Assembly (NCBI GenBank): GCA_026016225.1
Contig: CP061210.1
Coordinates: 593,131-657,130 of the forward strand
Origin: Candidatus Nealsonbacteria bacterium
GTDB taxonomy: Bacteria; Patescibacteriota; Minisyncoccia; Minisyncoccales; JANBVM01
DNA length: 64,000 nucleotides
Direction: 5' to 3'
A program made the translations under genes and the position numbers. The notes below the pieces were generated by a model that saw only the letters and a program-made list of their open reading frames with translations, had not been told where the DNA came from and searched no databases. This document shows positions 5,460 through 60,984 of this stretch, one piece after another. The first letter of the stretch is position 1. Every line of letters starts with the position of its first letter.

Positions 5460-7529
5460 TTATTTCCTTACCTCCCATTCAGGATCTTTTTCTAAGACTT
5501 TAATTATTTTCTCTTGAATATCATCTATTTCTTTTGAAGTTAGTGTTCTGTCTTCTGCTTGATAAATTATATGAAAAGCCAAATTCTTTTTTCCCTCAGC
5601 TATTTCTTCTCCTTCGTAAATGTCAAAAAGGTCAACATCTTTAATCAGATTAAGACCAGTTCCCTCAATTTTATTTAAAACCTCCTCAACTAAAACATCT
5701 CTCGGAACCAAAACCGCTATATCTCTGACAGCAGATGGATAAGGAGAAATTGGTCTAAATTCCTGTTCTTCTGAAACAAGTTCTTGTAGTTTTTCAAAAT
5801 CAAAATCAAAAATCACTACTTTAGCGTTTAATTTTAAGGCCTCTGTAATTTTAGAAGAAATCTCTCCCAGAAAACCGACTTCCTCATTACCTATCTTAAT
5901 CTCAGCACGCCTTTTGGAATTCCAGACAAAAGCTTTTGATTCTTCTGGTGTTGGTTGATATTGGTCATACCAAATATCGCTTATTCCCAAATTATTCAAA
6001 AGCAAATCTATAACACCTTTTGCCTCATAAAATACCTCACCTGTCATTAAACCTGTGAGAGCTGTTTTTTCTTTATCTTTTTCATTTTTGAAAATCTTTC
6101 CCAGCTCAAAAATTCTAATATCATTGAAACTCGCCTGCCATCGCCTTGAGCTCAAGCGATTGGCGGGCAGGAACTTTTGATTCTCCTGAAAGCTTTTTAG
6201 AACTTTTGGAATCAAACTTGGCCTTAAATACTGAAAGTCAGCACTAATCGGATTCTCTGTCTCAATCAACTGAAAATTTCTATAACCGAATAATTTAGCT
6301 TCTTCCTTATTAATAAAAGAAGAGCTATAAATCTCAGTAAATTCTGCTTCCTTTAATATATTTTTTGTCATATCTTCCCAGAAAACATTAAGATTTCTTT
6401 CAGGCGGAATCAAAGCAGCTTTAGGAAAAACAGAAGGAATTTTCTCATAACCATAAATCCTTCCAATTTCCTCAATTAAATCCTCAGGAATTGAAACATC
6501 CAGTCTAAAACTAGGAATCTCTATCATAAGTTGATTGGTTGATGATTTGAGAAATTTAAAACCAAGTCGCTTTAGAATATTTTTTATTCTGCTTGTTGAA
6601 ATTCTAACTCCCAGCAAACTCTCGACATAATCTAAATCTAATTTAATTTTCTTTATTGAAACTTTTTTAGGGTAAAAATCAACCAATCCCTTACAGATTT
6701 TGCCTCCGGCAATCTTTCCAATCAAATAAGCTGCTCCATTTATTCCAAATTCGGTTAAATTCAAATCCAAACCATGTTCAAATCTCCATGAAGCATCTGT
6801 TTTCAAATCTATTTTTTTGGAACCCTTACGAACAACTCTTGGATTAAAATTAGCAGACTCTAACACAATAACTTTTGTTTTTTTTGTTATCTCGGCCTTT
6901 TTCCCGCCTTTTATCCCGGCAATTGCCAAAGGGTCTTTTACATCCGAAATAACTAAAATATCCTTATTTAATTTATATCTTTCATTGTCTAAAGTAATAA
7001 TTTTTTCTCCTTTTTTAGCTCTCCTGATAATTATCTTTTGGTCTAAAATTTTATCCAAATCAAAAGCGTGTAATGGCTGACCTGTTTCCAACATCACGTA
7101 ATTTGCAATATCAACCACATTATTAATCGGTTTTAAACCTAAAATCTTTAATCTGTCCCGAAGCCATTTTGGAGAAGGAGCTATCTTGACATCTGTAACA
7201 ACTCTGGCTGTATACCTTAAACAGTCTTTTTTGCTTTTAACTTTTAGTTCTATAAAATCCTTTGCTCTATATTTTCCCTCTTTTAAAGAATAGTCTTCAA
7301 ATCTTAATTTAGTATCTAAAACAGCAGAAATCTCTCGAGCAATACCTAAATGAGAAAAACAATCAGGTCCCCTATTGGGCAAAATATCAATATCTAAAAC
7401 CCAATCCTTTCCTATTTTTTCTACCTCTTCAACCTCAAAGCTGTGCATTGTTAAAACCTCTGCTAATTTATTGGCTTTTGGCAGTTTTTTCTTAAAAAAT
7501 GATTGTAACCAGTTATAAGAAAAAAGCAT
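5460..7529 (-). CDS. pheT: phenylalanine--tRNA ligase beta subunit
   Basis: N-terminus MLFSYNWLQSF, B3/4 and B5 regions, and a C-terminal anticodon-binding-like domain. It is adjacent to pheS. It is short at 689 aa and seems to lack the N-terminal OB tRNA-binding domain. Confidence 0.9.
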   Translation of the reverse strand: MLFSYNWLQSFFKKKLPKANKLAEVLTMHSFEVEEVEKIGKDWVLDIDILPNRGPDCFSHLGIAREISAVLDTKLRFEDYSLKEGKYRAKDFIELKVKSKKDCLRYTARVVTDVKIAPSPKWLRDRLKILGLKPINNVVDIANYVMLETGQPLHAFDLDKILDQKIIIRRAKKGEKIITLDNERYKLNKDILVISDVKDPLAIAGIKGGKKAEITKKTKVIVLESANFNPRVVRKGSKKIDLKTDASWRFEHGLDLNLTEFGINGAAYLIGKIAGGKICKGLVDFYPKKVSIKKIKLDLDYVESLLGVRISTSRIKNILKRLGFKFLKSSTNQLMIEIPSFRLDVSIPEDLIEEIGRIYGYEKIPSVFPKAALIPPERNLNVFWEDMTKNILKEAEFTEIYSSSFINKEEAKLFGYRNFQLIETENPISADFQYLRPSLIPKVLKSFQENQKFLPANRLSSRRWQASFNDIRIFELGKIFKNEKDKEKTALTGLMTGEVFYEAKGVIDLLLNNLGISDIWYDQYQPTPEESKAFVWNSKRRAEIKIGNEEVGFLGEISSKITEALKLNAKVVIFDFDFEKLQELVSEEQEFRPISPYPSAVRDIAVLVPRDVLVEEVLNKIEGTGLNLIKDVDLFDIYEGEEIAEGKKNLAFHIIYQAEDRTLTSKEIDDIQEKIIKVLEKDPEWEVRK

Positions 7530-7543
7530 AGTGATAAGATAAA

Positions 7544-8596
7544 TTAAAATTGATTTAAAAATCTGAGGTCGCCTCCATAAAACAACCTAATATCATTGAT
7601 TTTATATTTAAGCATAGCCATTCTATCCATACCCATACCAAAAGCAAAAGCCTGCCAGTTTTTAGGGCTTAAACCAGAATTCTTGAAAACATTAGGATGA
7701 ACCATCCCTCCCGGAAAAACCTCTAACCATCCACTCTGACCACAAGTACTGCAACCTTTCCCATTACATATTGCACACTGAACATCTACTTCAAAAGAAG
7801 GTTCTGTAAAGGGAAAATAACCCGGTCGAAGGCGAACTTTTAAATCTTTCTTAAAAAATTGTTTGAAAAATTTTTTTGCTATTGCTTTAAAATTAGCAAC
7901 AGAAATTGTTTTATCAACCATTAATCCTTCAACCTGGTAAAAATTAATCTCATGTCTGGCATCAGTTGCCTCGTGCCTAAATACCCTGCCAGGAACAATA
8001 ATTCTTAAAGGAGGCTGATTCTTTTCCATGTAACGAACCTGAACAGGAGAAGTTTGGGTTCTCATTAAAAACTTATTTCGAGAAGGAAGATTTTCTCTAT
8101 TCCTTTGCTTTATAAACAAAGTATCTTGCATATCTCGAGCTGGATGGTTTTTGGGAAAATTCAAAGCATCAAAGTTATACCACTCATTTTCAAGCTCAGG
8201 ACCCTCAATAATTGAAAAGCCCATTGACTGGAATATCTTTTCGATTTCTATTTTAGTCTGGGTCAAGGGGTGTAAATGACCAACAGCCGGCTTTTTCCCG
8301 GGGATTGTAATATCAAAAAACTCCTCTTTTTCTCTCCTTACACCTGCCTTTTCTTTAATTTTCAGGCTTTTTTTAACAATCTTCTCTTCTAAAACAGCTT
8401 TAAGCTTATTTGCTTCTTTCCCAACCTTTACTCTTTTTTTCTTTGGCATCTTTTTCAGAGAACGCAAAACCAGGGAAAGTTCACCTTTCTTTCCTAAATA
8501 TTGTTTATAAACATCGTTCAACTCAGTTAAATTTTGGCTCTTTTTTATCTCTTTTTCAGCCCTTTTTTCAATGTTTTTTAAGTTAATTTTTTTCAT
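7544..8596 (-). CDS. pheS: phenylalanine--tRNA ligase alpha subunit
   Basis: Class II motifs (HPARDMQDTLF, FRHEATDARH, GMGMDRMAML). Confidence 0.92.
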   Translation of the reverse strand: MKKINLKNIEKRAEKEIKKSQNLTELNDVYKQYLGKKGELSLVLRSLKKMPKKKRVKVGKEANKLKAVLEEKIVKKSLKIKEKAGVRREKEEFFDITIPGKKPAVGHLHPLTQTKIEIEKIFQSMGFSIIEGPELENEWYNFDALNFPKNHPARDMQDTLFIKQRNRENLPSRNKFLMRTQTSPVQVRYMEKNQPPLRIIVPGRVFRHEATDARHEINFYQVEGLMVDKTISVANFKAIAKKFFKQFFKKDLKVRLRPGYFPFTEPSFEVDVQCAICNGKGCSTCGQSGWLEVFPGGMVHPNVFKNSGLSPKNWQAFAFGMGMDRMAMLKYKINDIRLFYGGDLRFLNQF

Positions 8597-11352: not shown

Positions 11353-12396
11353 TTAATGTGGAGGTTCTAACTCTGCTGTCTCCACCAATACTTCCTCTAA
11401 CTCATCTAAATTCTCTAAAACCATCCCCGCTCCCCTAACAACAGCTGTCATTGGGTCTTCAATAATTCTTGTTGGTATCCTTGTCTCTTTCTGAATTAAT
11501 ACATTTAATCCTCTTAAAAGAGCTCCGCCACCTGACAAATAAATTCCTTTTGTCATTACGTCAGCTAAAAGTTCAGGCGGTGTCTCTTCAATAGCTATTT
11601 TAATTTCTGTCACAATTCTTCCTATAGATTTTTCCATCGCCCTCCTTACTTCCCTATGAGAAATCAAAACTTCTTCAGGAAGACCAGTTACTAAATTTCT
11701 TCCTCGCATTGGAATTTCTTTTTTCTCTTTTAAAAGATGGGCTGAACCTATACCAATTTTAATCATTTCAGCTGTTCTCTCCCCGATTAATAGTTTATAT
11801 TCTTCCTGGGCAAAATGAATTATGTCATCATTAAGCTTATCTCCAGCTATTCTAAGACTTTTTGATAAAACTATACCTCCTAAGGAAATTACTGCCACCT
11901 CTGTTGTACCTCCTCCGATATCGACAATAAAATTCCCGCCTGCTTCCTGAACGGGCAATCTAGCTCCAATGGCTGATGCCATTGGTTCGTCAATTAAGAA
12001 AACTTCTCTTGCTCCCCCCGATTTTGCAGCATCAATCACTGCTTTTTTTTCTACTTCAGTTACTCCGGAAGGTATACCAATGATAATTCTTGGTCTGAGC
12101 CACCTTTTTTTCCTGGTTTTCTCAATAAAATACCTCAGCATTTGTTCTGTGACTTCAAAGTCAGAAACCACTCCGGCCCTTAAAGGTCTGGTTGCCACAA
12201 TATAAGAAGGGGTTCTCCCTACCATTTTTTTAGCTTCAGAACCAATTGCTAAAACCTGACCTGTTTTTTTATTTACAGCAACTATCGAAGGCTCTTGCAT
12301 AACAATACCCCTTCCACGTACATAGACCACAGAGTTGGCAGTACCAAGATCAATAGCAATATCCTCTGATAAAGCTTTAAAGATTTTTTTCAACAT
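11353..12396 (-). CDS. mreB: rod shape-determining actin homolog MreB (copy 1)
   Basis: IAIDLGTANS, DIGGGTTEVAVISLGG and LSGGGALLRGL motifs. Confidence 0.9.
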   Translation of the reverse strand: MLKKIFKALSEDIAIDLGTANSVVYVRGRGIVMQEPSIVAVNKKTGQVLAIGSEAKKMVGRTPSYIVATRPLRAGVVSDFEVTEQMLRYFIEKTRKKRWLRPRIIIGIPSGVTEVEKKAVIDAAKSGGAREVFLIDEPMASAIGARLPVQEAGGNFIVDIGGGTTEVAVISLGGIVLSKSLRIAGDKLNDDIIHFAQEEYKLLIGERTAEMIKIGIGSAHLLKEKKEIPMRGRNLVTGLPEEVLISHREVRRAMEKSIGRIVTEIKIAIEETPPELLADVMTKGIYLSGGGALLRGLNVLIQKETRIPTRIIEDPMTAVVRGAGMVLENLDELEEVLVETAELEPPH

Positions 12397-13687
12397 TCTT
12401 TTTTAAATTAGTAATTTCTATTAATTTTACTCTACTTTCATCTCTTCTTTTTAACTCAACAGAGTTTTTCCTTAACGTCTTTTCAGAAACAACAATCCTC
12501 ATTGGAATACCTATCAAATCACAATCTGCAAACTTTTCTCCTGCTGATTTATCTTTCCTATCATCATATAATATTTCAATATTTTGTTTTTGTCCACCTA
12601 TGCCGGAGGCTACGGCGGATCTACCGCAACTCCTCTTCTGAGAAGCAGAAACGGATAAATCCCTGTATATTTCATCTGCCTTTTTTCTTACATTTTTAGT
12701 ATTATCAAGAGAAATTAAATGAATCTGAAAAGGAGCTATTTCCTTTGGCCAAATAATTCCATTTTTATCGCTATTGACTTCAACCGAGGTTGCCATTAAT
12801 CTGGGAAGGCCAATTCCATAACACCCCATTAAAATAAATTTCTCTTTACCGTCTTTATCTTTATATTTAGCGTTCATATCCTTACTATACTTTGTCCCCA
12901 GATAGAAGATATGTCCTACTTCAATTGATTTTTTAGTCTCCAATGGACTTTTACATTGGGGACATTTTTTGTTTCTACCCATCACTTCAATATTTACTCC
13001 GTAATTACATTTTTTGCAAAGTAAAATCTTATCCTCGCCAATATTAGATATGACCATGAATTCATGAGAAAGCTTGCCGCCAATTGTACCAGAACTTGCT
13101 TCAACGCAAACTGTTTTTAACCCACACCTCTTAAAGATTTTAAAATAAGATTTTTTTATTTTTTCATAAAAATTGACCAAGTCTTTCTTATTAGAATGAA
13201 AACTATATAAATCCTTCATTATAAATTCTATTGTTCTTAAGAGTCCGCCGGTAGCCCGCATTTCATTACGGAATTTATTCTGAATCTGAAAGAGAAAGAA
13301 AGGTAAATCTTGGTAAGAACTAACTCTTTTTCGGACCATATCCACCATTTCCTCTTCATGGGTAGAACCCAAAGCTAATTCTTTATTGTGGCGGTCTTTC
13401 AATTTAAAAAGAGGTGGATCCATAGCATTCCAGCGTTTAGTTTCCTGCCAAAGATTCTTATTTTGAAAAGTTGACAAATATACTTCTTGAGCACCCAGCT
13501 CAAGCATTTCTTCCCGGATAATTTTTTCAATTTTTTTCAAAACTAAAAATCCTAAGGGTAAAAATCTATAAACTCCGCTAATTGATTGCTCAATAAAATC
13601 CCCTTTAATTAAATATTTATGACTAATAGCTATTGCAGTTCTTGCTATTTTCTTTTTAGTTTTTGTGAAAAGTTGGGATTGAAGCAT
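12377..13687 (-). CDS. proS: proline--tRNA ligase, bacterial-type but without the INS editing domain
   Basis: Start MLQSQLF... (ATG at 13687 is preferred over the track start at 13729, which overlaps rseP). Class II motifs and the MGCYGIG motif are present. A CKKC...CPQC knuckle sits where INS normally lies. A GC-rich insert of about 20 aa lies in the anticodon-binding domain. Confidence 0.88.
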   Translation of the reverse strand: MLQSQLFTKTKKKIARTAIAISHKYLIKGDFIEQSISGVYRFLPLGFLVLKKIEKIIREEMLELGAQEVYLSTFQNKNLWQETKRWNAMDPPLFKLKDRHNKELALGSTHEEEMVDMVRKRVSSYQDLPFFLFQIQNKFRNEMRATGGLLRTIEFIMKDLYSFHSNKKDLVNFYEKIKKSYFKIFKRCGLKTVCVEASSGTIGGKLSHEFMVISNIGEDKILLCKKCNYGVNIEVMGRNKKCPQCKSPLETKKSIEVGHIFYLGTKYSKDMNAKYKDKDGKEKFILMGCYGIGLPRLMATSVEVNSDKNGIIWPKEIAPFQIHLISLDNTKNVRKKADEIYRDLSVSASQKRSCGRSAVASGIGGQKQNIEILYDDRKDKSAGEKFADCDLIGIPMRIVVSEKTLRKNSVELKRRDESRVKLIEITNLKKNVEKNL

Positions 13688-13692
13688 ATGTT

Positions 13693-14772
13693 TTAGAAAA
13701 TTCTTGCTATATCTTTTATTGTTACCCAAACCATTAGCAAGAGCAAAGCCATAAAAGAAAAAGCAATCATTTTTTGTTGAATTTTTTCAGAAACTGGTTT
13801 TTTTCTTACGGCCTCAATTGCTAAAAATAAAATTCTACCTCCGTCTACTGCCGGAATAGGTAAAAGATTAAATATGGCTAATTGAATAGAAATTAAAGAT
13901 AGAAAGTTCAAAAAATAAATTAATCCTAATCGTTGAGTCTGAGTTAACATTTGAAAGATTCCAACAGGTCCTACTATCTCTATTCCTGTCCGCTGGCCTA
14001 AAAATAAGTTTTCAAGAGCTTGAATATAAACTTGAATTACAGCCAAAGTAATCTTCCCCGTAGTCACAATTCCTTTAAAAGGAGCTAAATACCAGGGATG
14101 TTTTTGAATTGCCGTCCTAATTAAAGCTACTCCCATTGGTCCCTCACCTTCGGGCGGCAAAATTCTTGGTATTAAAGAAGCTTCGAAAACCTCTTTTTCT
14201 CTCTCAATTATCAAAATAATATTCTGACCTTTATTCTGGTTAATAATCTCTTTTATTTCTTTAATCTTCGTTACATCAAACCTCAAACCTCCAATCTTAA
14301 AACCTTTTATTATATCTCCTACTTTTAAACCCGCAATATCAGCCGGCGAATCTGAAGCTATATCTATAATATTGACTTTAGGATTTAAAAAATTAGAAAT
14401 TTCTTCATCTTCAATCATAACAGGAGCGCCGAGACCAAAGACAATACTAAAAAGAATTGCTGCTATTACCCAAAAAGAAAGCACCCCTCCCAAAGCAATC
14501 AAAAATCTTTTTCCAACCGATTGTCGAGAAAAACTATGAGGATCACGGCTTTTTTCAATCTCTCCCGGCATCCTGACAAAAGCACCGAAGGGCAAAAGAT
14601 TAAGAGAATAAATAGTTTCTCCAATTTTTTTTGCAATTATTCTTGGAGGATAACCTATCCCAAACTCTTCAACTTTTACTCTAAATTTTTTAGCCAATAT
14701 AAAATGACCCAGCTCATGAAGAGTTATTAAACTAATAAGACTGATAAGACCTATTATAAATGTTAAAATCAT
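13693..14772 (-). CDS. rseP: RIP site-2 metalloprotease (RseP/M50 family) with PDZ domain
   Basis: HELGHF zinc motif, a PDZ-like segment (ADIAGLKVGDII) and LLPIPAVDGG. Confidence 0.8.
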   Translation of the reverse strand: MILTFIIGLISLISLITLHELGHFILAKKFRVKVEEFGIGYPPRIIAKKIGETIYSLNLLPFGAFVRMPGEIEKSRDPHSFSRQSVGKRFLIALGGVLSFWVIAAILFSIVFGLGAPVMIEDEEISNFLNPKVNIIDIASDSPADIAGLKVGDIIKGFKIGGLRFDVTKIKEIKEIINQNKGQNIILIIEREKEVFEASLIPRILPPEGEGPMGVALIRTAIQKHPWYLAPFKGIVTTGKITLAVIQVYIQALENLFLGQRTGIEIVGPVGIFQMLTQTQRLGLIYFLNFLSLISIQLAIFNLLPIPAVDGGRILFLAIEAVRKKPVSEKIQQKMIAFSFMALLLLMVWVTIKDIARIF

Positions 14773-15362: not shown

Positions 15363-16280
15363 TTAAAGCTTCATCATTAATATTTCTAAAGCTAATCTTG
15401 GGTTAATGTTCGTGGTTGAAATTACATAAATTGTTTCTTGAATAGCGTCGAGAATGTTTTTTATTTTTAATAAATTTGGTCTGTTTTTAGCAAAAAGTAA
15501 ATTCTTTCTGAAATAAAACAACCAAGCATCCAATGTTTCTTTCAGGTCTTCTTTTTGGGATAATTCTTTAACATATTGAAAACGTAAAGAAAGCGGAGAA
15601 TTTGAAATTTTTTCCAATTTTTTTATCTTTTTCTTTCTCTGTTCTAATTTCTCGGAGTTTTGCAAAAAATTAATAGCTTTTCCGGGTCTCCCTAATGAAA
15701 GTTCAACAATTTGTTTAATATCTTCCTTCGGAACTTTTTTTTGTTTCAAGTAAAGACTTATTTCTTCATTTTTCACGGAGTAAAACTTAACATTTTCACA
15801 CCTTGAAAGGATAGTAGGTAAAAGATAACCTGGATGCTCTGTAATTAAAATTAAAAGACTTTTAGTTTTTGGTTCTTCTAAGCTCTTTAAAAAACAGTTT
15901 TGGGCCTCCCGGGTCATTAAATGAGCTTTATCAACTATTACGCCTAAAAGAGGTGCTTTTATAGGTTTTAAGGATAATTTCCAATTAAGCTCTCTAATCT
16001 GAGCAATTTGAATCTGCTCACGCACCAGAGCAGACCTCGGAGCGGGGGTGTTGCGCCCAACCGAACTTTGTTCTGGTCTGGGATGTTTTGTTCTTGGGAC
16101 AATCAAAATAAAATCTGGATGACGAGACAGTTCTTCTTTAAAAAGAGAAGAAATTAGCTCTAAAGCTATTGTTCTTTTACCTAACTCTTCGGGTCCGGTA
16201 AACAGTAAAGCATGAGGAATTTTTCCTGAGCTAACTATTTTTTTTAAAAACTCTTGTTGTTTTTTATGGCCAATAATCAC
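15363..16280 (-). CDS. holB: DNA polymerase III delta-prime subunit
   Basis: HALLFTGPEELGKRT P-loop-like start, HPDF, and the SLEEP...ILSRC sensor region. It contains a GC-rich insert of about 20 aa. Confidence 0.7.
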   Translation of the reverse strand: MIIGHKKQQEFLKKIVSSGKIPHALLFTGPEELGKRTIALELISSLFKEELSRHPDFILIVPRTKHPRPEQSSVGRNTPAPRSALVREQIQIAQIRELNWKLSLKPIKAPLLGVIVDKAHLMTREAQNCFLKSLEEPKTKSLLILITEHPGYLLPTILSRCENVKFYSVKNEEISLYLKQKKVPKEDIKQIVELSLGRPGKAINFLQNSEKLEQRKKKIKKLEKISNSPLSLRFQYVKELSQKEDLKETLDAWLFYFRKNLLFAKNRPNLLKIKNILDAIQETIYVISTTNINPRLALEILMMKL

Positions 16281-17278
16281 TGTTTCTTCCTCATTATTGT
16301 TTTTTTATAGAGGTCTAAATTTTCTAACATTACTCCTGTTCCCTTTGCTACGCATAAAGACGGGTCCTCAACTAAAATAGCTGGAACACCTATGGATTTG
16401 GCAATTAATTCTGGAAGATTATCTAATAGAGAACCTCCTCCTGTCATTACCATCCCTTTATTCATGATATCAGCCGACAGTTCAGGTGGAGTATCTCTAA
16501 GTACTAATTTAATTACGTGAATAATCTCGGAAAGAATATCAGAGAGGGCTTCGCACATATCATTTGACGAAATTTTAATATTTTTAGGTAATCCTAAAGA
16601 CATATCTCTTCCTCGAATCTCCATCTTTTTTTCTTCCTTCTCGGGAAGAGCGGTACCGATTCTCTTCTTTATCTCCTCTGATGTTTGTTCTCCGATAGCT
16701 AAATTGTATTTCTTCCTAATATAATCAGAAATAGCAATATCCATTTTATCTCCTGCTATTCTTATAGAATGAAAATTAACAATTCCACCCAAAGAAATCA
16801 CTGCAGCTTCAGTTGTCCCTCCCCCAATATCAACAATCATATTACCGGAACAACTATCAATTGGAACCCCCGCTCCAATAGCTGCTAAGATGGGCTCTTT
16901 CGCTAAATAAACTGTTTTCGCTCCGACATTCATGCCGGCTTCAATTACCGCCCTTTTTTCAGTAGAAGTAATACCGGCTGGAACACCAATCATCAAATCT
17001 GGCTTGAAAAGGCGAAAATGACCCATCGTTTTATCAATAAAATGTTTAAGCATTGCCTGGGTTACTCTAAAATCAGCAATCACTCCGTCCTTAAGAGGTC
17101 GATAAATACGGATTGTATCGGGAGTACGTCCCATCATTTCTTTAGCTTCTCTTCCCACAGCTAAAATCTCATTCTCTGCTATGGCTACTGCCACTACTGA
17201 TGGTTCTTGTAAAACCACTCCTTTTTTAGGAATAAAAACAACTGAATTGCAGGTTCCTAAATCAATACCAATTCTCAT
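16277..17278 (-). CDS. MreB-like actin homolog (copy 2)
   Basis: MRIGIDLGTCNS, DIGGGTTEAAVISLGG and MTGGGSLLDNL motifs. It lacks the N-terminal extension of copy 1. Confidence 0.85.
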   Translation of the reverse strand: MRIGIDLGTCNSVVFIPKKGVVLQEPSVVAVAIAENEILAVGREAKEMMGRTPDTIRIYRPLKDGVIADFRVTQAMLKHFIDKTMGHFRLFKPDLMIGVPAGITSTEKRAVIEAGMNVGAKTVYLAKEPILAAIGAGVPIDSCSGNMIVDIGGGTTEAAVISLGGIVNFHSIRIAGDKMDIAISDYIRKKYNLAIGEQTSEEIKKRIGTALPEKEEKKMEIRGRDMSLGLPKNIKISSNDMCEALSDILSEIIHVIKLVLRDTPPELSADIMNKGMVMTGGGSLLDNLPELIAKSIGVPAILVEDPSLCVAKGTGVMLENLDLYKKTIMRKKQ

Positions 17279-17295
17279 AGTAGTGCTAATACATA

Positions 17296-17392
17296 ATCAG
17301 GTCGCTCGCCTTCGGCGAAAGCCTGTTTTCCTACATGGGGGAAACCTGAGAGTGGTGGACACTCACTCTCGCCCCCCCCCTCCGATATAGGA
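17296..17392 (-). promoter_or_regulatory. GC-rich structured leader upstream of mreB copy 2
   Basis: Minus strand reads ...UAUAUCGGAGGGGGGGGGCGAGAGUGAGUGUCCACCACUCUCAGGUUUCCCCC...CAGGCUUUCGCCGAAGGCGAGCGACCUG. Hairpins are GAGAGUG/CACUCUC and UCGCC-GAA-GGCGA. It shares a motif of about 35 nt with the rpsQ leader. Confidence 0.4.
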
Positions 17393-17505
17393 AAGTCTGT
17401 TTAAAAGATTATCTTTTTCCTCTTTAAAGATAACTTATCTTTTCAAATTTTGCAACTTTCAAAAAAAAAGAAGTCAAAAAATAGTCCTCTATAAGTTAAT
17501 GGCTC

Positions 17506-28433: not shown

Positions 28434-29156
28434 TCAATAGTTACTTTTAGATAATAGTTTAACTATCTTAATAAATTCTTTTGGTTTTAAAGAAGCTCCT
28501 CCAATTAAAAGACCTTGAAATTTGGATTCTTTAATATAACCTAAGGCATTTTGAGAATTAACACTGCCACCGTATAAAACAGGATGTTTCTTTCCTAAAA
28601 CCTTTTTAATTGAAAGATTGAATCTTTTGGCCTGGGAAAAACTACAGGCTTTTCCAGTTCCAATCGCCCATATTGGTTCGTAAGCCACAATTATCTTTTT
28701 AATTTGGCTTTTTAAAATTCCCTTAATACCTCTTTTAATTTGAGAAATCTCATCAATGCATAAAATAGGTCTTAAATTTTGTTTAAGGACTGCTTTTAGC
28801 TTCTTATTAATTTCTGCGTCTTTTTCTAAGAAATGACTTCGTCTTTCAGAATGACCAATAATTACGTATTTACAACCCAAATCCGTAAGCATCAAAGGAG
28901 ATATCTCTCCTGTAAAAGCGCCTCTTTCTTCCCGGAAACAATTCTGTGAGCCGAAGGCGAGTCCTCCGTAGCTCGCCCTGCGGCGAGCGGAGGAGGGAGC
29001 TCCCAATAAAGATAGATAAACAAAAGGTGGACAAATTACTACTTCTGCATTTTTGACATCTTCAATCCCTCTTCTTATTGAATTGAAAAGATTACTTGCT
29101 TTTTTTAAGCTTGTTGGATTACATTTCCAATTACCTATAATGAAAATTTTATCCAT
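28434..29156 (-). CDS. tpiA: triosephosphate isomerase
   Basis: GNWKCN, GHSERR, AYEPIWAIGTG and GGASLK motifs. It contains a GC-rich palindromic patch at 28947-29003. Confidence 0.88.
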   Translation of the reverse strand: MDKIFIIGNWKCNPTSLKKASNLFNSIRRGIEDVKNAEVVICPPFVYLSLLGAPSSARRRASYGGLAFGSQNCFREERGAFTGEISPLMLTDLGCKYVIIGHSERRSHFLEKDAEINKKLKAVLKQNLRPILCIDEISQIKRGIKGILKSQIKKIIVAYEPIWAIGTGKACSFSQAKRFNLSIKKVLGKKHPVLYGGSVNSQNALGYIKESKFQGLLIGGASLKPKEFIKIVKLLSKSNY

Positions 29157-48982: not shown

Positions 48983-49057
48983 CGGGCTGTAGCGCAGTTT
49001 AGTTAGCGCGCTCGCATGGGGCGCGAGAGGCCGCCGGGGCAGAGCCGGCCAGCCCGA
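48983..49057 (+). tRNA. tRNA-Pro (anticodon GGG) with non-canonical T- and D-loops
   Basis: CGGGCTG TA GCGC AGTTTAGTTA GCGC G CTCGC ATGGGGC GCGAG AGGCC GCCGG GGCAGAG CCGGC CAGCCCG A. All four stems are perfect and G37 is present. The T-loop is GGCAGAG rather than TTCRANY, and the D-loop lacks GG. Confidence 0.6.
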
Positions 49058-49088
49058 CACTTTTATTTAGAGACGCTAAAAAATGAAC

Positions 49089-49171
49089 TACCCCGCCCTA
49101 AAGGGACGGGGTATCCCTTCCGCCAACTGGCGGAGGGGCAAGTTCTTTTGCCCCGCCTGGGCGGGGCAAAA
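49089..49171. repeat. cluster of three GC-rich hairpins between tRNA-Pro and the nuclease-like gene
   Basis: TACCCCGCCC-taaa-GGGaCGGGGTA at 49089-49113. CCTTCCGCC-aact-GGCGGAGGG at 49115-49138. TTTTGCCCCGC-ctgg-GCGGGGCAAAA at 49146-49171. None is followed by a T-run. Confidence 0.8.
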
Positions 49172-49179
49172 TAAAATCT

Positions 49180-50037
49180 ATGAGTAAAGTTATTGTTAAG
49201 TGCTCTTATTGTAAAACGGAATTCCAGCGAGAATTGGGAAGATACAACGAAGCAATAAAGAAAAGTTGGAATCAGTATTGCTCTCAAGAATGTCAAAATA
49301 AGTCTAAGATTAAAAGAGTAGAAAAAATTTGCGGTAATCCAAAATGTAACAAGAGGGTGTCTCGTAAATTCCACGAATTTAAAAAATCAAAATCAGGCAG
49401 CATCTTTTGTTCTCTTTCTTGTGCCGTGTCGGTCAACAATTCTAAATTTCCAAAAAGACAGGCAATAAAAAGAAAATGTCTCTATTGTGAAAAAGATTTT
49501 GTCGGCGGAAAGAAATATTGCTCGATAAAATGCAAAAATAAAGCCCAAATTATAAGCAAAGAAGAAATCTGTGATAAAATTAAAGGGTTCTATAAAAAAT
49601 ATAGAAGGATTCCTGTCAAAAAAGAGTTCTCTCATTATAATGCTGCTCGAGATCGGTTCGGTTCTTGGAATAAAGCAATAGAATCAGCAGGCTTCGTACC
49701 TAATCCAGTAGTATTTGCAAGAAAGCACAAAGCAGAAGATGGACATGTGTGCGATTCTCTATCGGAAAAAATTGTTGATGATTGGCTTTCTAAAAACAAC
49801 TTAAAGCACAAAATTAATGTTGCCTATCCAGGGAATCCCCGTCTAACATGTGATTTTTTAGTAGGTAACTATTTTATAGAATTTTTCGGAATTGGAAAAG
49901 AACACGTACGATACACAGAACTAATGAAAGAAAAAAGGCGATTGGCTCAACAGTATAACCTTAATATGGTAGAACTAAAGCCTGAACACATTTTTCCTAA
50001 AAATAAGTTAGACGCTGTATTAAATTTTCTTCTATAA
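49180..50037 (+). CDS. multi-Zn-ribbon protein with homing-endonuclease-associated repeat and C-terminal PD-(D/E)XK/Vsr-like nuclease-like domain
   Basis: Three CxxC...(F/Y)CSxxC modules are followed by FYKKYRRIPVKKEFSHYNAARDRFGSWNKAIESAGF, an HNH-associated-repeat-like pattern. The C-terminus is CDSLSEKIVDDWL...TCDFLVGNYFIEFFG, like small DUF559/Vsr-type nuclease folds. The family assignment is pattern-based only. Confidence 0.45.
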   Translation: MSKVIVKCSYCKTEFQRELGRYNEAIKKSWNQYCSQECQNKSKIKRVEKICGNPKCNKRVSRKFHEFKKSKSGSIFCSLSCAVSVNNSKFPKRQAIKRKCLYCEKDFVGGKKYCSIKCKNKAQIISKEEICDKIKGFYKKYRRIPVKKEFSHYNAARDRFGSWNKAIESAGFVPNPVVFARKHKAEDGHVCDSLSEKIVDDWLSKNNLKHKINVAYPGNPRLTCDFLVGNYFIEFFGIGKEHVRYTELMKEKRRLAQQYNLNMVELKPEHIFPKNKLDAVLNFLL

Positions 50038-50105
50038 AAACAACTAAGATTAATTACAGAGATAGAAATTCTCGGGTATTCTAAACTTAGCGCGAACCTA
50101 TTTTC

Positions 50106-50155
50106 AGCGAAACGCCTAACCGCCGTTTCGCTTTGCCCGCGCGAAGCGCGGGCAA
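50106..50155. repeat. two adjacent perfect GC-rich hairpins downstream of the nuclease-like gene
   Basis: AGCGAAACG-cctaaccgc-CGTTTCGCT at 50106-50132. TTGCCCGCGC-gaa-GCGCGGGCAA at 50133-50155. Confidence 0.8.
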
Positions 50156-50187
50156 GGAAAAGAAAGTTTTTCAAAAATCTTTATTGG

Positions 50188-51267: not shown

Positions 51268-52332
51268 TTAAATATTGAAAACATCAACCAATTGTTTTAT
51301 CAAAGAAACAACTACCGGTGGAGGTAATAAACTATAAGAAGAGACACCTTCATCATCTGTCACTACCCATGGTTTCTCTTTTATTTTTACTTTTTTTATC
51401 TTTTTATCCCATTCAAAAATATATTCTGGGGTTATTTCATAATCATCAACAAAATTTGCAGCTTCCTTAACAGGTACCGAATTTCTCAATAAAACCTTTG
51501 GAATTCCATAGAGAGAAAAAGATTGTCTAATTAATTTATCATCCATAATTAATCTTTTTTTTATAGGTGCAATCCCCAACTCGTCTCCTTCTTTTAAAAT
51601 CATTTTAGCTTTTTTACACCTGGGATTGTCGCAAATTAAATAAAATTCATTGCTTTTTTCATCAAATCCAGCTTCTGAGGTTGGAAGTAGCTTTAAGTTT
51701 CTCGAAGTCTGGCAAACCGGACAAATCCTTCTCCATCTAATTCTTTCATCAATTACTTTTTCAGGAACATCAATTAAAATAAAAACGTCCGGGTCATCTC
51801 GATGACCAACCAAGTCTCTGAAAAACAAAGAAAAATCTATCTGGTCTAAATCCCTTGGAAAACCATCCACAAAAAGAGTTTTCTTTTCCATTCTTTCCAT
51901 CTCTCTTTTAACCAAAGTTAAAATCAATTCTGTAGGTAAAAGAACTTTTGTGCTCCTGTTTTCTAAAAGGGATATTATTTCTTTAATTGAAATCCTGCCC
52001 CGATAATTTCTTTTTAAAAAATCAAAGAATCCTTCTCTCTTTTTTTTATCTGTTAATTCTCCGTCTATTTTTCTAATCATATCTCCAATGGAAAAGTGCT
52101 CTATCTTTTCAGGCCCAATAATTTCTGCAAACATCTTTGAATAAGTTCCCTTACCTGAGTTTTTCTTACCTAACAAATAAGCAACAAAAGTATTTTCTTT
52201 CAAATACTCTTTTAATTTTTCTATCTCTTTTCCTGCTTTGGCTTTAAAATATTTTTTTCTCTCCCTGAGGTTTATTAAATTAAATTTTTTTTCAAAGCCT
52301 TTAATTTTTGTTTTAAAAAGAGGAAATTCCAT
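51268..52332 (-). CDS. divergent adenylate-kinase-family protein with extended Zn-lid and an extra C-terminal domain of about 100 aa
   Basis: P-loop GKKNSGKGT, DGFPRD, and lid RWRRICPVCQ...CDNPRCKK. It is a second AK-like gene besides adk at 32154. Confidence 0.5.
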   Translation of the reverse strand: MEFPLFKTKIKGFEKKFNLINLRERKKYFKAKAGKEIEKLKEYLKENTFVAYLLGKKNSGKGTYSKMFAEIIGPEKIEHFSIGDMIRKIDGELTDKKKREGFFDFLKRNYRGRISIKEIISLLENRSTKVLLPTELILTLVKREMERMEKKTLFVDGFPRDLDQIDFSLFFRDLVGHRDDPDVFILIDVPEKVIDERIRWRRICPVCQTSRNLKLLPTSEAGFDEKSNEFYLICDNPRCKKAKMILKEGDELGIAPIKKRLIMDDKLIRQSFSLYGIPKVLLRNSVPVKEAANFVDDYEITPEYIFEWDKKIKKVKIKEKPWVVTDDEGVSSYSLLPPPVVVSLIKQLVDVFNI

Positions 52333-53203
52333 AGTATTTAGGGTTTAGGATTTTTAAATTTTCTCCATCAGAGAAAATCTTTATATCTCCGTCTCTGTCG
52401 GTTCTTAAAACTTTTATATCATATTTATCTAAAATATCCAAAACTTCTGGATGGGGGTGCCCATAACTGTTTTCTTTACCAACAGAAATTACAGCTATTT
52501 CAGGATTCACTTCTTCCAAAAATTTTTCCGAAGTAGAAGTCTTACTTCCATGATGACCAACCTTTAAAATATCAGAATTAAGATATAATCCCCTATCCAC
52601 AAGTTTTTTCTCTATTGATTTGTAAAGGTCTCCGGTAAAGATAAAAGAATTATTATTAAAGACCAATCGAAGTGCAATTGAAGTATTGTTAGTATTCTTA
52701 ACTTCTTTACCTTCTAAATCCTCAAAAGGATGTAAGACATCAAAAAAGATTTTTGGAGTTAGTATCTTCTGACCTATTTTAGCTATCTTTGTTTTAACAT
52801 CTTCGTCCTCAATTAATTTTTTCCATTCTTTATACTCTCCAGTATCCTTTAACACACCACTCCATAAAATAAAATCTACTTTATATCTCTTTAAAACCTC
52901 AAGCAAACCTGCGATATGGTCATGCTCAGGATGAGTCAAAACAATCAAATCAATAGTTCTATCCCAAAAAGGCATTTCTTTACCTAATTTTTCCAAAACA
53001 GCGGAGGTCGGACCTCCGTCAATTAAAATTTGATAATTATTTGGGGTTTCAATAAAAATAGCATCACCTTGTCCTACATCAAAGAAACTAACCTCAAGAA
53101 ATTGAGGTTTGTTTAAATCATAAACTACAGACCAGGCAAAAATATTAACACAGAATAAAGTAACCAGAATCCAGAAAATAAGTTTTTTGTCTTTCTCTAT
53201 CAT
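52313..53203 (-). CDS. membrane-anchored MBL-fold hydrolase, ComEC/Rec2 C-terminal-domain-like
   Basis: N-terminal TM, DVGQGDAIFIE, THPEHDHIAGL (HxHxDH), and KVGHHGSKTS. Confidence 0.7.
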   Translation of the reverse strand: MIEKDKKLIFWILVTLFCVNIFAWSVVYDLNKPQFLEVSFFDVGQGDAIFIETPNNYQILIDGGPTSAVLEKLGKEMPFWDRTIDLIVLTHPEHDHIAGLLEVLKRYKVDFILWSGVLKDTGEYKEWKKLIEDEDVKTKIAKIGQKILTPKIFFDVLHPFEDLEGKEVKNTNNTSIALRLVFNNNSFIFTGDLYKSIEKKLVDRGLYLNSDILKVGHHGSKTSTSEKFLEEVNPEIAVISVGKENSYGHPHPEVLDILDKYDIKVLRTDRDGDIKIFSDGENLKILNPKYYGISSF

Positions 53204-59818: not shown

Positions 59819-60106
59819 TCAATTTCTTATCTTCTTTTGAATCCTAATTGCTTTCCCTTTAATAAGAGCTTGGGCTATTTTTCTGTGGGCTGAGATTAAG
59901 ATTCGTCCAAGAGTGCTTTGAGAAATTCTCATTTTTTTGGCAGCCTCGGTTTGACTTAATCCTCTTAAATCACAAAGTCTAATTGCTTCCAACTCATCTA
60001 CTTTTAAATCCACTTCTTCTAACACAGAAAGAGGTATAGCTCTTGGTTTAAAATAAGTGACATTGGGGTCAAATGAAATTCTTCTTGGTTTTATTGGTCT
60101 TGACAT
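59819..60106 (-). CDS. DUF134 (UPF0251) small DNA-binding protein
   Basis: MSRPIKPRRISFDPNVTYFKPRAIPL... followed by a sigma-70 region-4-like HTH (LSQTEAAKKMRISQSTLGRIL). Confidence 0.7.
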   Translation of the reverse strand: MSRPIKPRRISFDPNVTYFKPRAIPLSVLEEVDLKVDELEAIRLCDLRGLSQTEAAKKMRISQSTLGRILISAHRKIAQALIKGKAIRIQKKIRN

Positions 60107-60984
60107 ATTACATTATTTAATTTTTTAAATATTTTTTTAATTTCGGTTTTGGCTTTAAGGTTAGTTTCTACAATTGGCTTTAAGTTAGAAACTGCTTTAA
60201 ATATCTTTTTATCGTAAGAAATTTTACCTAAAATTCTTTTACCTATCTGTCCTGAGCCATGTCGAAGGGTCCATTTCTCAATTTTATTACTCAATCCAGG
60301 ATCAATATTCCACTTATTAATTACCAAACCCCAAGGAATATTAAAATGATTTACTACTTTCAAAACCCTTTTTAAATCGGAAAAAGCTGAAGGAGTAGGC
60401 TCTGTAATCAAAATAGCAAAATTTGAATCCTGTAAGGCAGCTATAACCGGACAACCTGTTCCCGGAGAAGAATCTAAGATTTGAAGCTTACAGCCAGATT
60501 TGTCTGCCTGTTTTTTAAGTTCTGTTATTATTTTTCCCGAACCTGTTTCTCCAGGTAAAAGATTTCCAATGATTAAAGGAAAACCGTATTTTGTATTCTT
60601 TATTATAATCTCCCCATTTTGAACAGGTTTTAATTTAATGGCTTTTTGAGGACAGACAATTTCACAAACACCGCACCCCTCACATAAAAATGGATTTAGT
60701 TTTGGTTTTCCATCTACCATTTTTATTGCTCCAAAACGACATTTCTCAACACATAAACCACAACCATTACACTTTTTATAATCAATTATTGGTTTAGCTG
60801 AAGTAACCACTGGAATCTTCTCCCTCGAGTCTTTAATTTCATTCAACCAAATAGCTAAATTAGGAGCATCAACATCACAATCTACAGCTACTATTTTTTT
60901 AGATTCAGTAAAAAGTATTGCTAAACTTGAAGCCAACATTGATTTTCCTACACCTCCCTTTCCGCTCGCAATTACCAATTTCAT
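60091..60984 (-). CDS. MinD/ParA-superfamily P-loop ATPase with inserted 2x[4Fe-4S] ferredoxin domain (COG1149-like), copy 1
   Basis: Deviant Walker A SGKGGVGKS and two CxxCxxCxxxC motifs (CNGCGLCVEKC, CEGCGVCEIVC). Confidence 0.72.
   Translation of the reverse strand: MKLVIASGKGGVGKSMLASSLAILFTESKKIVAVDCDVDAPNLAIWLNEIKDSREKIPVVTSAKPIIDYKKCNGCGLCVEKCRFGAIKMVDGKPKLNPFLCEGCGVCEIVCPQKAIKLKPVQNGEIIIKNTKYGFPLIIGNLLPGETGSGKIITELKKQADKSGCKLQILDSSPGTGCPVIAALQDSNFAILITEPTPSAFSDLKRVLKVVNHFNIPWGLVINKWNIDPGLSNKIEKWTLRHGSGQIGKRILGKISYDKKIFKAVSNLKPIVETNLKAKTEIKKIFKKLNNVICQDQ

Follow-up and report, generated by a model that had tools for sequence, protein, structure and literature searches.

A GC-rich block within the clamp-loader gene holB, in a 64,000-nt stretch of a Candidatus Nealsonbacteria genome (contig CP061210.1; the whole stretch is called the window below), is in our judgement, with a probability of about 0.7, a translated and partly decayed copy of a small, non-autonomous, mobile element of ~64-66 nt made up of two hairpins. 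We refer to these sequences as family A. The unit, or one of its hairpins, occurs at unrelated loci in Paceibacteria/Nealsonbacteria-like genomes and, as a precise block, is either there or missing; intact copies hardly differ even where their hosts have diverged, and older copies, that of the window included, lose GC content and base pairing. Patescibacteria, or Candidate Phyla Radiation (CPR), have tiny, streamlined, AT-rich genomes that are usually described as poor in mobile DNA, and a literature search on CPR together with MITEs (miniature inverted-repeat transposable elements), repetitive extragenic palindromes (REPs) or in-frame palindromes yielded no description of such elements. The gene, its insert and the two hairpins are located as follows.

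15363..16280, minus strand: holB, DNA polymerase III delta' subunit (clamp loader); Pfam DNA_pol3_delta2, E = 7e-32.
16017..16085, minus strand: insert of 69 nt or 23 codons, HPRPEQSSVGRNTPAPRSALVRE, absent from 282-aa homologues.
16056..16082, minus strand: hairpin H1, intact in the DNA fold, CCCA(G)ACC-A-GAAC-AAA-GTTC-GGTTGGG.
16017..16048, minus strand: hairpin H2, eroded, CCCCCGCTCCGAGGTCTGCTCTGGTGCGTGAG; 27/29 identity to canonical copies, two stem mismatches.

The holB open reading frame (ORF) is intact and in frame, and encodes 305 aa; the baseline length of HolB is 282 aa across the 120 homologues that were taken into an alignment from the 1369 found (some of them JGI-named delta'). 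The extra residues, 66-88, are flanked by HPDFILIVPRTK and QIQIAQIREL. A GC-rich in-frame insert had been reported here by the initial annotation; its string was indeed present at 16017-16082, and the 120-homologue alignment set the extent of the insert at 69 nt and 23 codons. The inverted repeats reported with it were also recovered, CAGACC/GGTCTG at 16031-16036 and 16075-16080, along with a second pair of 17-nt arms that is 76% complementary. With a GC content of 0.58-0.70 in a gene of 0.33, the insert ranks among the GC-richest stretches of the window outside RNA genes (50-nt maximum 0.70 vs 0.33 for the whole 64 kb). It matched the family A covariance model with 60.3 bits (E = 1.8e-13), and its local alignment to a canonical copy scored 54, where the maximum among shuffles was 24. 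We conclude that it is a degenerate, translated copy of family A, and that this copy is an eroding relic and not an active element. Taken alone, the fold of the window copy does not differ significantly from shuffles (z = -1.3 as RNA, -1.5 as DNA), and it was dropped as standalone evidence; the structure becomes convincing only through the related copies. In an AlphaFold2 model of the window HolB the mean predicted local distance difference test score (pLDDT) was 87.6. Since residues 67-86 fell below 50, the insert is predicted to form a disordered loop that joins two beta strands of an otherwise well-folded protein. A peptide such as SSLRGSPAPSSALVR would be expected if filled holB alleles are translated through the insert.

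The anatomy of the element was derived from an alignment of 11 distinct copies. The full unit of 64-66 nt consists of H1 plus H2, modules of ~30 nt that are each also found alone. H1 has a GC-rich outer stem around an inner stem and triloop of the form GA(A/G)C-NNN-G(T/C)TC; it reads CCCCG..GAAC-GAA-GTTC..CGGGG in holB copies and CCAGAA..GAGC-GAA-GCTC..TTCTGG 3' of tRNA-Pro, and H1-equivalent hairpins with differing stem sequences were found in L083, L099 and L001 (loci and contigs carry L numbers here, HolB proteins P numbers). Canonical H2 is CCCGCACC-GAGC-TCT-GCTC-T-GGTGCGGG, with the last arm also written GGTGCG(T)GGG. The only terminal symmetry of the element is CC...GG. In the alignment 86.9% of the cells were paired against 81.3% in shuffles (0/500 shuffles reached the observed value), eight pairs had changed on both sides (2/500 shuffles), the covariation score was 0.189 against 0.101 (0/500 shuffles), and slid controls paired at 25-42%. 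A compensatory C-G to T-A variant in H2 is common to the holB copy L085 and the non-holB copies L115/L116. As single-stranded DNA, intact copies fold with -17 to -23 kcal/mol (z = -4.8 to -6.6), and the energies form a series from L083 (-23.1) through the window (-12.1) and L081 (-8.5) to L087 (-4.0 kcal/mol). The GC content of the insert is 0.55-0.62 in holB genes of 0.33-0.35. Since most frames are open (4/6 for the canonical unit, 6/6 for the H2 core), translation of the element should be easily tolerated.

Alleles with and without the block could be compared directly. The proteins P0047 and P0111 are identical save for 22 residues, and the metagenome holB alleles L090 and L091/L092 are 100% identical save for one 66-nt block, which reads GCAAAA[CACCCCGAAGCAGAACGAAGTTCGCTACGGGGTAGCCCCGCACCGAGCTCTGCTCTGGTGCGTGGG]CAAATCC with its flanks and whose only boundary ambiguity is 2 nt (CA). 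Filled and empty forms were each found in several independent assemblies. On the tree, the empty P0111 and P0112 fall within a group of filled alleles, which points to a seamless loss of the insert in their clade. A second clean pair is provided by contig L118, which carries two tRNA-Pro(GGG) loci: a 64-nt H1+H2 block lies 3' of the tRNA at one and is absent at the other, and it sits within the GAA loop of a pre-existing solo H1 hairpin with a 2-nt (GC) boundary repeat. The 2-nt repeats in the two pairs (CA, GC; joint chance ~1/256) are equally compatible with a 2-bp target duplication and with microhomology-mediated loss. A third comparison involves an empty site in the window.

60697..60708, minus strand: empty site in the CbiA/ParA-2xFer4 gene (60091-60984); the L001 orthologue carries a solo H1 in frame, +11 aa.

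L001 is the Nealsonbacteria genome CP179887, whose CbiA/Fer4 protein is 85% identical to that of the window and differs by RTRTSSVRGRP. Its solo H1 matched the covariance model at 6574-6635 with 30 bits and encodes ...SSVRG..., in the same frame as in holB. At holB the window is filled and L001 empty, and at the Fer4 gene L001 is filled and the window empty; the modules therefore occupy different places in two related genomes.

We searched metagenome contigs with a 26-nt degenerate pattern taken from the 3' half of the insert. It matched 34 contigs, 19 at holB and 15 elsewhere, the latter in 12 distinct contexts, which included the following.

L094: directly 3' of the ruvC stop codon.
L095: 36 nt 3' of tRNA-Asp.
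L099, L108, L118: 52 nt 3' of tRNA-Pro(GGG).
L097: beside pheS.
L104: before a T-run.
L117, L119, L122: 5' of leuS, cdaA and tRNA-Leu.
L123, L113: in frame within a PMT-family mannosyltransferase gene.

The central loop of an MFS transporter in L039 is encoded in part by two tandem in-frame hairpins, which have the same stem and different tops. Copies of family A are thus both intergenic (tRNA-Asp, tRNA-Pro, tRNA-Leu, ruvC, leuS, cdaA) and in frame (holB, PMT, MFS, CbiA/Fer4), in both orientations relative to the neighbouring genes. A blastn-short search for further copies in the window and 1.2 Mb of related loci returned the holB site only, there were no matches in the viral contigs of IMG/VR, and Rfam, run at gathering and E-value thresholds on the window and 13 loci with copies, called tRNAs and no family over any copy. 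In three contigs the surroundings of the copies deserve mention. In L094 (2830-2960, minus strand) H2 lies between two diverged ruvC 3' ends that are ~80% identical (...AADALAIAICYTISHQG*, then the hairpin, then AADALAIAICYTLSVKRA*), and it looks as if a foreign ruvC end and the hairpin had been joined there by one-sided homologous recombination. In L118 two tRNA-Pro(GGG) genes with similar flanks (161-236 and 8191-8262) bracket an 8-kb segment with genes for a radical SAM enzyme, a methyltransferase, a GNAT protein and unknowns, among which no integrase was seen, and in L099 (6986-7240) part of the tRNA-Pro 3' end is repeated after the element; the arrangement recalls an island that has integrated at a tRNA gene.

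Among HolB proteins the insert is carried by 36 of 121. The nearest relatives of the window protein (P0002-P0016, 71-74% identical) are without it, and a homologous insert occupies exactly the same codon boundary in the more distant P0017, P0024, P0028, P0029, P0032-61, P0068 and P0107. Mapped on a neighbour-joining tree that was built without the insert columns, presence and absence require at least 12 gains or losses, with absence as the root state. Carriers share the peptide KHPxxExSSxRGxPAPSSALVRG, and in P0001, 99% identical to the window protein, the insert still ends in ...VRG. In-frame remnants occur in P0023, P0027 and L003, with sizes that include 12 and 33 nt; these, the expanded versions and all other holB variants have lengths divisible by three and no stop codon in the frame of the host gene. 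In P0010/P0018 (L082 10001-10978) the insert is expanded to 43-55 residues (…VQGQGRGNLVVSSRGTSGQNSSGRSAQPKALRRRPVRG), which suggests secondary insertions or duplications inside the first. Of 80 species representatives, 50 have a 3-residue linker at this position; in 15 the insert is 8-35 residues long, and these inserts are of several unrelated kinds, some of them GC-rich hairpins (L047, L069; family-B-like in L016, see below) and others AT-rich; because of this variety we regard the delta' loop as a tolerant site or hotspot.

We next compared the insert with its host gene at the nucleotide level. The loci had been retrieved by protein identity and not by DNA pattern, so this comparison is free of ascertainment bias.

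L083 and L089: insert identity 65/66 (98%), rest of the gene 72%.
L083 and L085: insert identity 91%, rest of the gene 69%.
L085 and L086: insert identity 86%, rest of the gene 65%.
L083 and L090: insert identity 100%, rest of the gene 88%.
L085 and L090: insert identity 91%, host identity within 66-69%.

Identity at third codon positions was 86-100% within the insert and 48-59% outside it (82% in the closely related pair L083-L090); for L083-L089 the two values were 100% and 59%. The gene-wide binomial P values for the excess ranged from 1e-4 to 8e-9. Between L083 and L085, ~5/6 of the nucleotide changes in the insert are non-synonymous; since most changes thus alter the amino acid, the constraint on the insert does not lie on the peptide. 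In L081 and L087 the excess was gone, GC was down to 0.46-0.51 and pairing was lost, and the window copy is intermediate between the intact copies and these two.

How such an element would live can be outlined from these observations. It would insert, and might also excise precisely, by way of a folded hairpin form, and in essential genes it would survive only where the frame is kept, no stops are introduced and the site is a tolerant surface loop, the delta' loop being one such site. After insertion, a copy would evolve as ordinary coding sequence under AT-biased mutation. The weakest step of this scheme is movement itself, which could be due to a hairpin-recognising enzyme that acts in trans and leaves 2-nt terminal repeats, or alternatively to gene conversion induced by breaks, the route that has been suggested for the GC clusters of yeast mitochondria. 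Recombination also moves hairpin segments, since the hairpins of L094 and L099 lie between diverged 3'-end duplicates and the flanks in L090, L091 and L092 are mosaic, and the holB copies may reflect either repeated site-specific insertion or one origin that spread by recombination, both of which fit. A much wider claim, possible but in our view rather doubtful, would be that Patescibacteria harbour, in these hairpins, an active and hitherto undescribed class of tiny, modular mobile elements, the bacterial equivalent of the mitochondrial GC clusters. Such elements would insert and excise seamlessly or with a 2-nt duplication via a folded single strand, by an enzyme or repair route other than a recognisable insertion sequence (IS) transposase, would home repeatedly to the same codon boundary of essential genes (holB, proS, tpiA), and would remodel the surface loops of core proteins in genomes that are thought to be streamlined.

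Several observations weigh against a mobile two-hairpin element, or at least narrow what can be said of it. A Pfam search for a transposase or recombinase on ~55 ORFs of the window and the loci L094, L097, L099, L110 and L118 found none, and a tblastn search with an IS200 TnpA sequence found nothing below E = 5 in 1.5 Mb of genome fragments, a weak test because only fragments were sampled. The covariance model matched 80 related species loci (1.17 Mb) only twice (L039 and the solo H1 of L001), and it found one clear copy and no second in the window. The covariation test rests on only 11 related sequences, with a structure derived from the same sequences. For the window copy the excess identity over the host gene is modest (0.76-0.80 vs 0.60-0.73), and for L083-L089 the N-terminal flanks beside the insert are conserved too (0.82-0.94), because of which the excess over the local background is smaller than the gene-wide one (P about 1e-4). 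Lastly, every holB copy sits at one same codon boundary, which fits one origin and spread by homologous recombination as well as repeated site-specific insertion. This last point is also the natural starting point for the view that the element has no mobility of its own, and that hairpins arise or are captured occasionally, spread by natural transformation and homologous recombination of their flanks, and are lost by hairpin-stimulated slippage. In line with this, the tract of identity between L083 and L089 extends beyond the insert by ~9 nt upstream and 29 nt downstream, the mosaic flanks in L090, L091 and L092 are typical of a recombining population, the hairpins of L094 and L099 lie between diverged duplicates of a gene's 3' end, and the empty P0111 and P0112 nested among filled alleles suggest precise loss. 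Homologous recombination, however, cannot bring one 26-66-nt sequence to 12 or more unrelated loci, and the boundaries of the block coincide with the hairpin feet in independent contexts, so that we consider this view unlikely.

We regard it as similarly improbable that selection on the hairpins maintains a nucleic-acid structure that benefits the host, such as an mRNA stabiliser, a terminator-like hairpin, a translational pause or a protein-binding site. Covariation and strong folds in intact copies would be expected of such a structure, as would H2 directly after the ruvC stop codon, the copy before a T-run in L104 and the several copies that flank tRNA genes. Yet most relatives do without the element, pairing decays in the window copy, L081 and L087 while the gene is retained, copies occur in both orientations relative to their neighbours, and filled and empty alleles exist side by side in genes that do not otherwise differ. 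Still less credible is an ancient, lineage-specific surface loop of delta' that is selected as protein and was inherited vertically with many losses. The insert is always in frame, open and at one site, its peptide is recognisably conserved (the consensus given above), and P0023 and P0027 have in-frame partial deletions; but its nucleotide identity exceeds that of the host with third positions as conserved as first and second, most L083-L085 changes are non-synonymous, the region is predicted to be disordered, and the closest relatives and 50 of the 80 species representatives have a 3-residue linker. Moreover, the same nucleotide element stands in intergenic and unrelated coding contexts, which largely refutes such a loop, and we conclude that the holB insert is not an ancient protein loop. 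Finally, GC-rich inserts within genes of a genome that is itself AT-rich recall the byps of Magnusiomyces mitochondria (PMC8811140), which would suggest an intervening sequence that is removed before or during translation, as a mini-intron or by ribosomal bypass. The probability of this is negligible: every variant, from the 12- and 33-nt remnants to the expanded versions, is a stop-free multiple of three in the host frame, decayed copies evolve like coding sequence, and Rfam gave no intron or ribozyme match in the window and the 13 loci. For an intein the insert is far too short.

The initial annotation had also pointed to GC-rich inserts in tpiA and proS, and comparison with homologues bore this out and added pheT as a fourth case.

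12593..12655, minus strand: proS insert of 21 codons, SVSASQKRSCGRSAVASGIGG, 'family B'; absent from ~50 syntenic proS genes.
28944..29003, minus strand: tpiA GC island, GAPSSARRRASYGGLAFGSQ, an insert of ~12-15 aa; patchy among 120 homologues of the tpiA product, triosephosphate isomerase (TIM).
6129..6170, minus strand: pheT insert of 14 codons, LPANRLSSRRWQAS, palindromic and GC-rich; missing in 9 pheT homologues.

In the distant L044 a homologue of the proS insert (gene at 12377-13729) occupies the same site, and L010 has a decayed one. The tpiA island, with a perfect 7-bp hairpin at 28971-28988, lies in a gene whose product is 98% identical to one on a Nealsonbacteria metagenome-assembled genome contig at NCBI; the names of other homologues likewise point to a Nealsonbacteria-like member of the Patescibacteria. 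A comparison with solved TIM structures gave +6 or ~0 residues and would have made this island no insertion at all; it was set aside as misleading, because close homologues show the insert of ~12-15 aa. Between the tpiA island and the L044 proS insert, 28/36 ungapped positions agree (score 37 vs a shuffle maximum of 22), and their stems are compensatory (GCTCGCC-GCAG-GGCGAGC vs GCTCCTC-GAAA-GAGGAGC, with an outer TCCTCC/GGAGGA stem). The tpiA and proS inserts form a second family (B). The holB insert had no significant similarity to family B or to the pheT insert (p > 0.03 before correction), nor had the pheT insert to families A and B, and holB shares with family B only a general design, in which a GC-rich stem encloses a short inner stem with its loop. 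One family for all four inserts was thus ruled out for holB and accepted for tpiA-proS only. Of the suggestion that the inserts might belong to one recurrent family, recurrence itself stood, with the holB insert dispersed in at least 12 non-holB contexts and tpiA and proS homologous to each other, whereas the membership of holB in the tpiA/proS family did not. The opposite outcome that the initial annotation had named, ancient conserved loops without any recurrent family, did not occur, as a dispersed family was found.

Perfect GC-rich hairpins are strongly over-represented in the window (9 observed vs 0-1 in local shuffles), and several lie outside the four inserts above. A tRNA-Pro(GGG)-like gene at 48984-49057 (plus strand) has a perfect 7-bp acceptor stem, a D arm and an anticodon arm, with an aberrant, very GC-rich T-loop (GCCGG-GGCAGAG-CCGGC), and was called by neither ARAGORN nor Rfam; at the orthologous position L099 and L118 have a normal tRNA-Pro(GGG) beside the same M50 peptidase gene. 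Between this gene and an ORF at 49180-50037 with a homing-endonuclease-associated HNH_repeat (Pfam E = 3e-12), three tandem GC-rich hairpins (49086-49171, plus strand; up to 0.84 GC) include a perfect 11-bp stem, TTTTGCCCCGCC-TGGG-CGGGGCAAAA. The second-best match of the covariance model falls here, in the same context as the family A copies of L099 and L118.

49091..49138, plus strand: possible divergent two-hairpin element 3' of the tRNA-Pro(GGG)-like gene; a weak match (16.7 bits, rough E ~0.02).

Of two adjacent intergenic hairpins at 50090-50170, one has a perfect 10-bp stem and a GAA triloop (TTGCCCGCGC-GAA-GCGCGGGCAA), with a core of the GCGAAGC-type mini-hairpin as in H1. Further perfect GC-rich hairpins lie at 11966-11985, inside a second mreB paralogue (11353-12396), and at 53002-53018, inside a metallo-beta-lactamase-fold gene (52313-53203). 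The mreB paralogues at 11353-12396 and 16277-17278 flank the holB-frr-rseP-proS block, an order that is kept in L083 and L090. Upstream of the latter paralogue, a 105-nt intergenic stretch of GC 0.66 (17297-17401) with UUCG-type hairpins and a run of nine C had no Rfam match and could be an unannotated small RNA or leader.

Altogether, four housekeeping genes (holB, proS, tpiA and pheT) within 64 kb have translated GC-rich hairpin inserts, and at least one insert family is dispersed, is polymorphic in populations and shows stronger conservation than the gene that hosts it. Such inserts would account for peculiar length differences and for 'disordered loops' among the core proteins of CPR, they caution against reading CPR loops as adaptive, and they should be usable as strain-level markers. 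They also offer a tractable case for how tiny palindromic elements move and enter essential genes, a question that is likewise open for Rickettsia palindromic elements (RPEs) and the mitochondrial GC clusters.

Among known systems, RPEs are Rickettsia-specific, dispersed palindromic repeats of 105-146 bp with stable stem-loops, which are intergenic, beside or inside RNA genes, or part of the reading frame of conserved protein genes, in which their translation is tolerated (PMC2229807). Family A is likewise palindromic with stable stem-loops and has both intergenic copies and in-frame copies in conserved genes, but it is 30-66 nt long, modular, GC-rich in a 33% GC genome and hosted by Patescibacteria, differences taken from the published description of RPEs; it further shows precise presence and absence at the population level and recurrent use of one codon boundary. 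The GC clusters of yeast mitochondria, in an AT-rich genome, are mostly intergenic with polymorphic in-frame insertions in var1, carry terminal repeats of 2-3 nt (AG/TAG), interpreted as duplications of the target, and propagate through unidirectional gene conversion (PMC8811140). Short GC-rich palindromes in an AT-rich genome, polymorphic in-frame insertion and 2-nt boundary repeats (CA, GC) are found in family A as well; since its host is a bacterium with a free genome and the clusters are organellar and eukaryotic, the likeness is an analogy only, and a sequence relationship is not expected.

REPs are extragenic and number hundreds per genome. Like them, the REPINs that RAYT transposases mobilise and bacterial interspersed mosaic elements (BIMEs), family A has imperfect palindromes, GC-rich and 20-40 nt long, in which the foot of the stem is conserved and which often lie at gene 3' ends, in both orientations and in mosaics, the tandem same-stem hairpins of L039 and the nested insertion in the H1 loop of L118 being BIME-like. 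Unlike the REP/RAYT system, it has copies in coding regions, a low density in the sampled relatives and lacks a conserved 5' GTAG, and the weak tblastn search of genome fragments turned up no gene of the RAYT/IS200 type. MITEs are typically ~100-200 bp long, have clear terminal inverted repeats and duplicate a target of TA or more. The bacterial ones (Correia, ERIC, RUP, YPAL) are small non-autonomous repeats with open frames that can be fused to host ORFs (PMC2229807). Family A resembles these in being small, non-autonomous, dispersed in multiple copies and fused in frame to host ORFs; it differs in its ends, which are only CC...GG, in a boundary repeat of 2 nt of variable sequence, and in that no parent IS was found in the window and neighbouring loci. 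By analogy, family A thus seems to behave like the RPEs and the yeast GC clusters and, given its host, its size and the lack of a sequence link, to be a member of neither.

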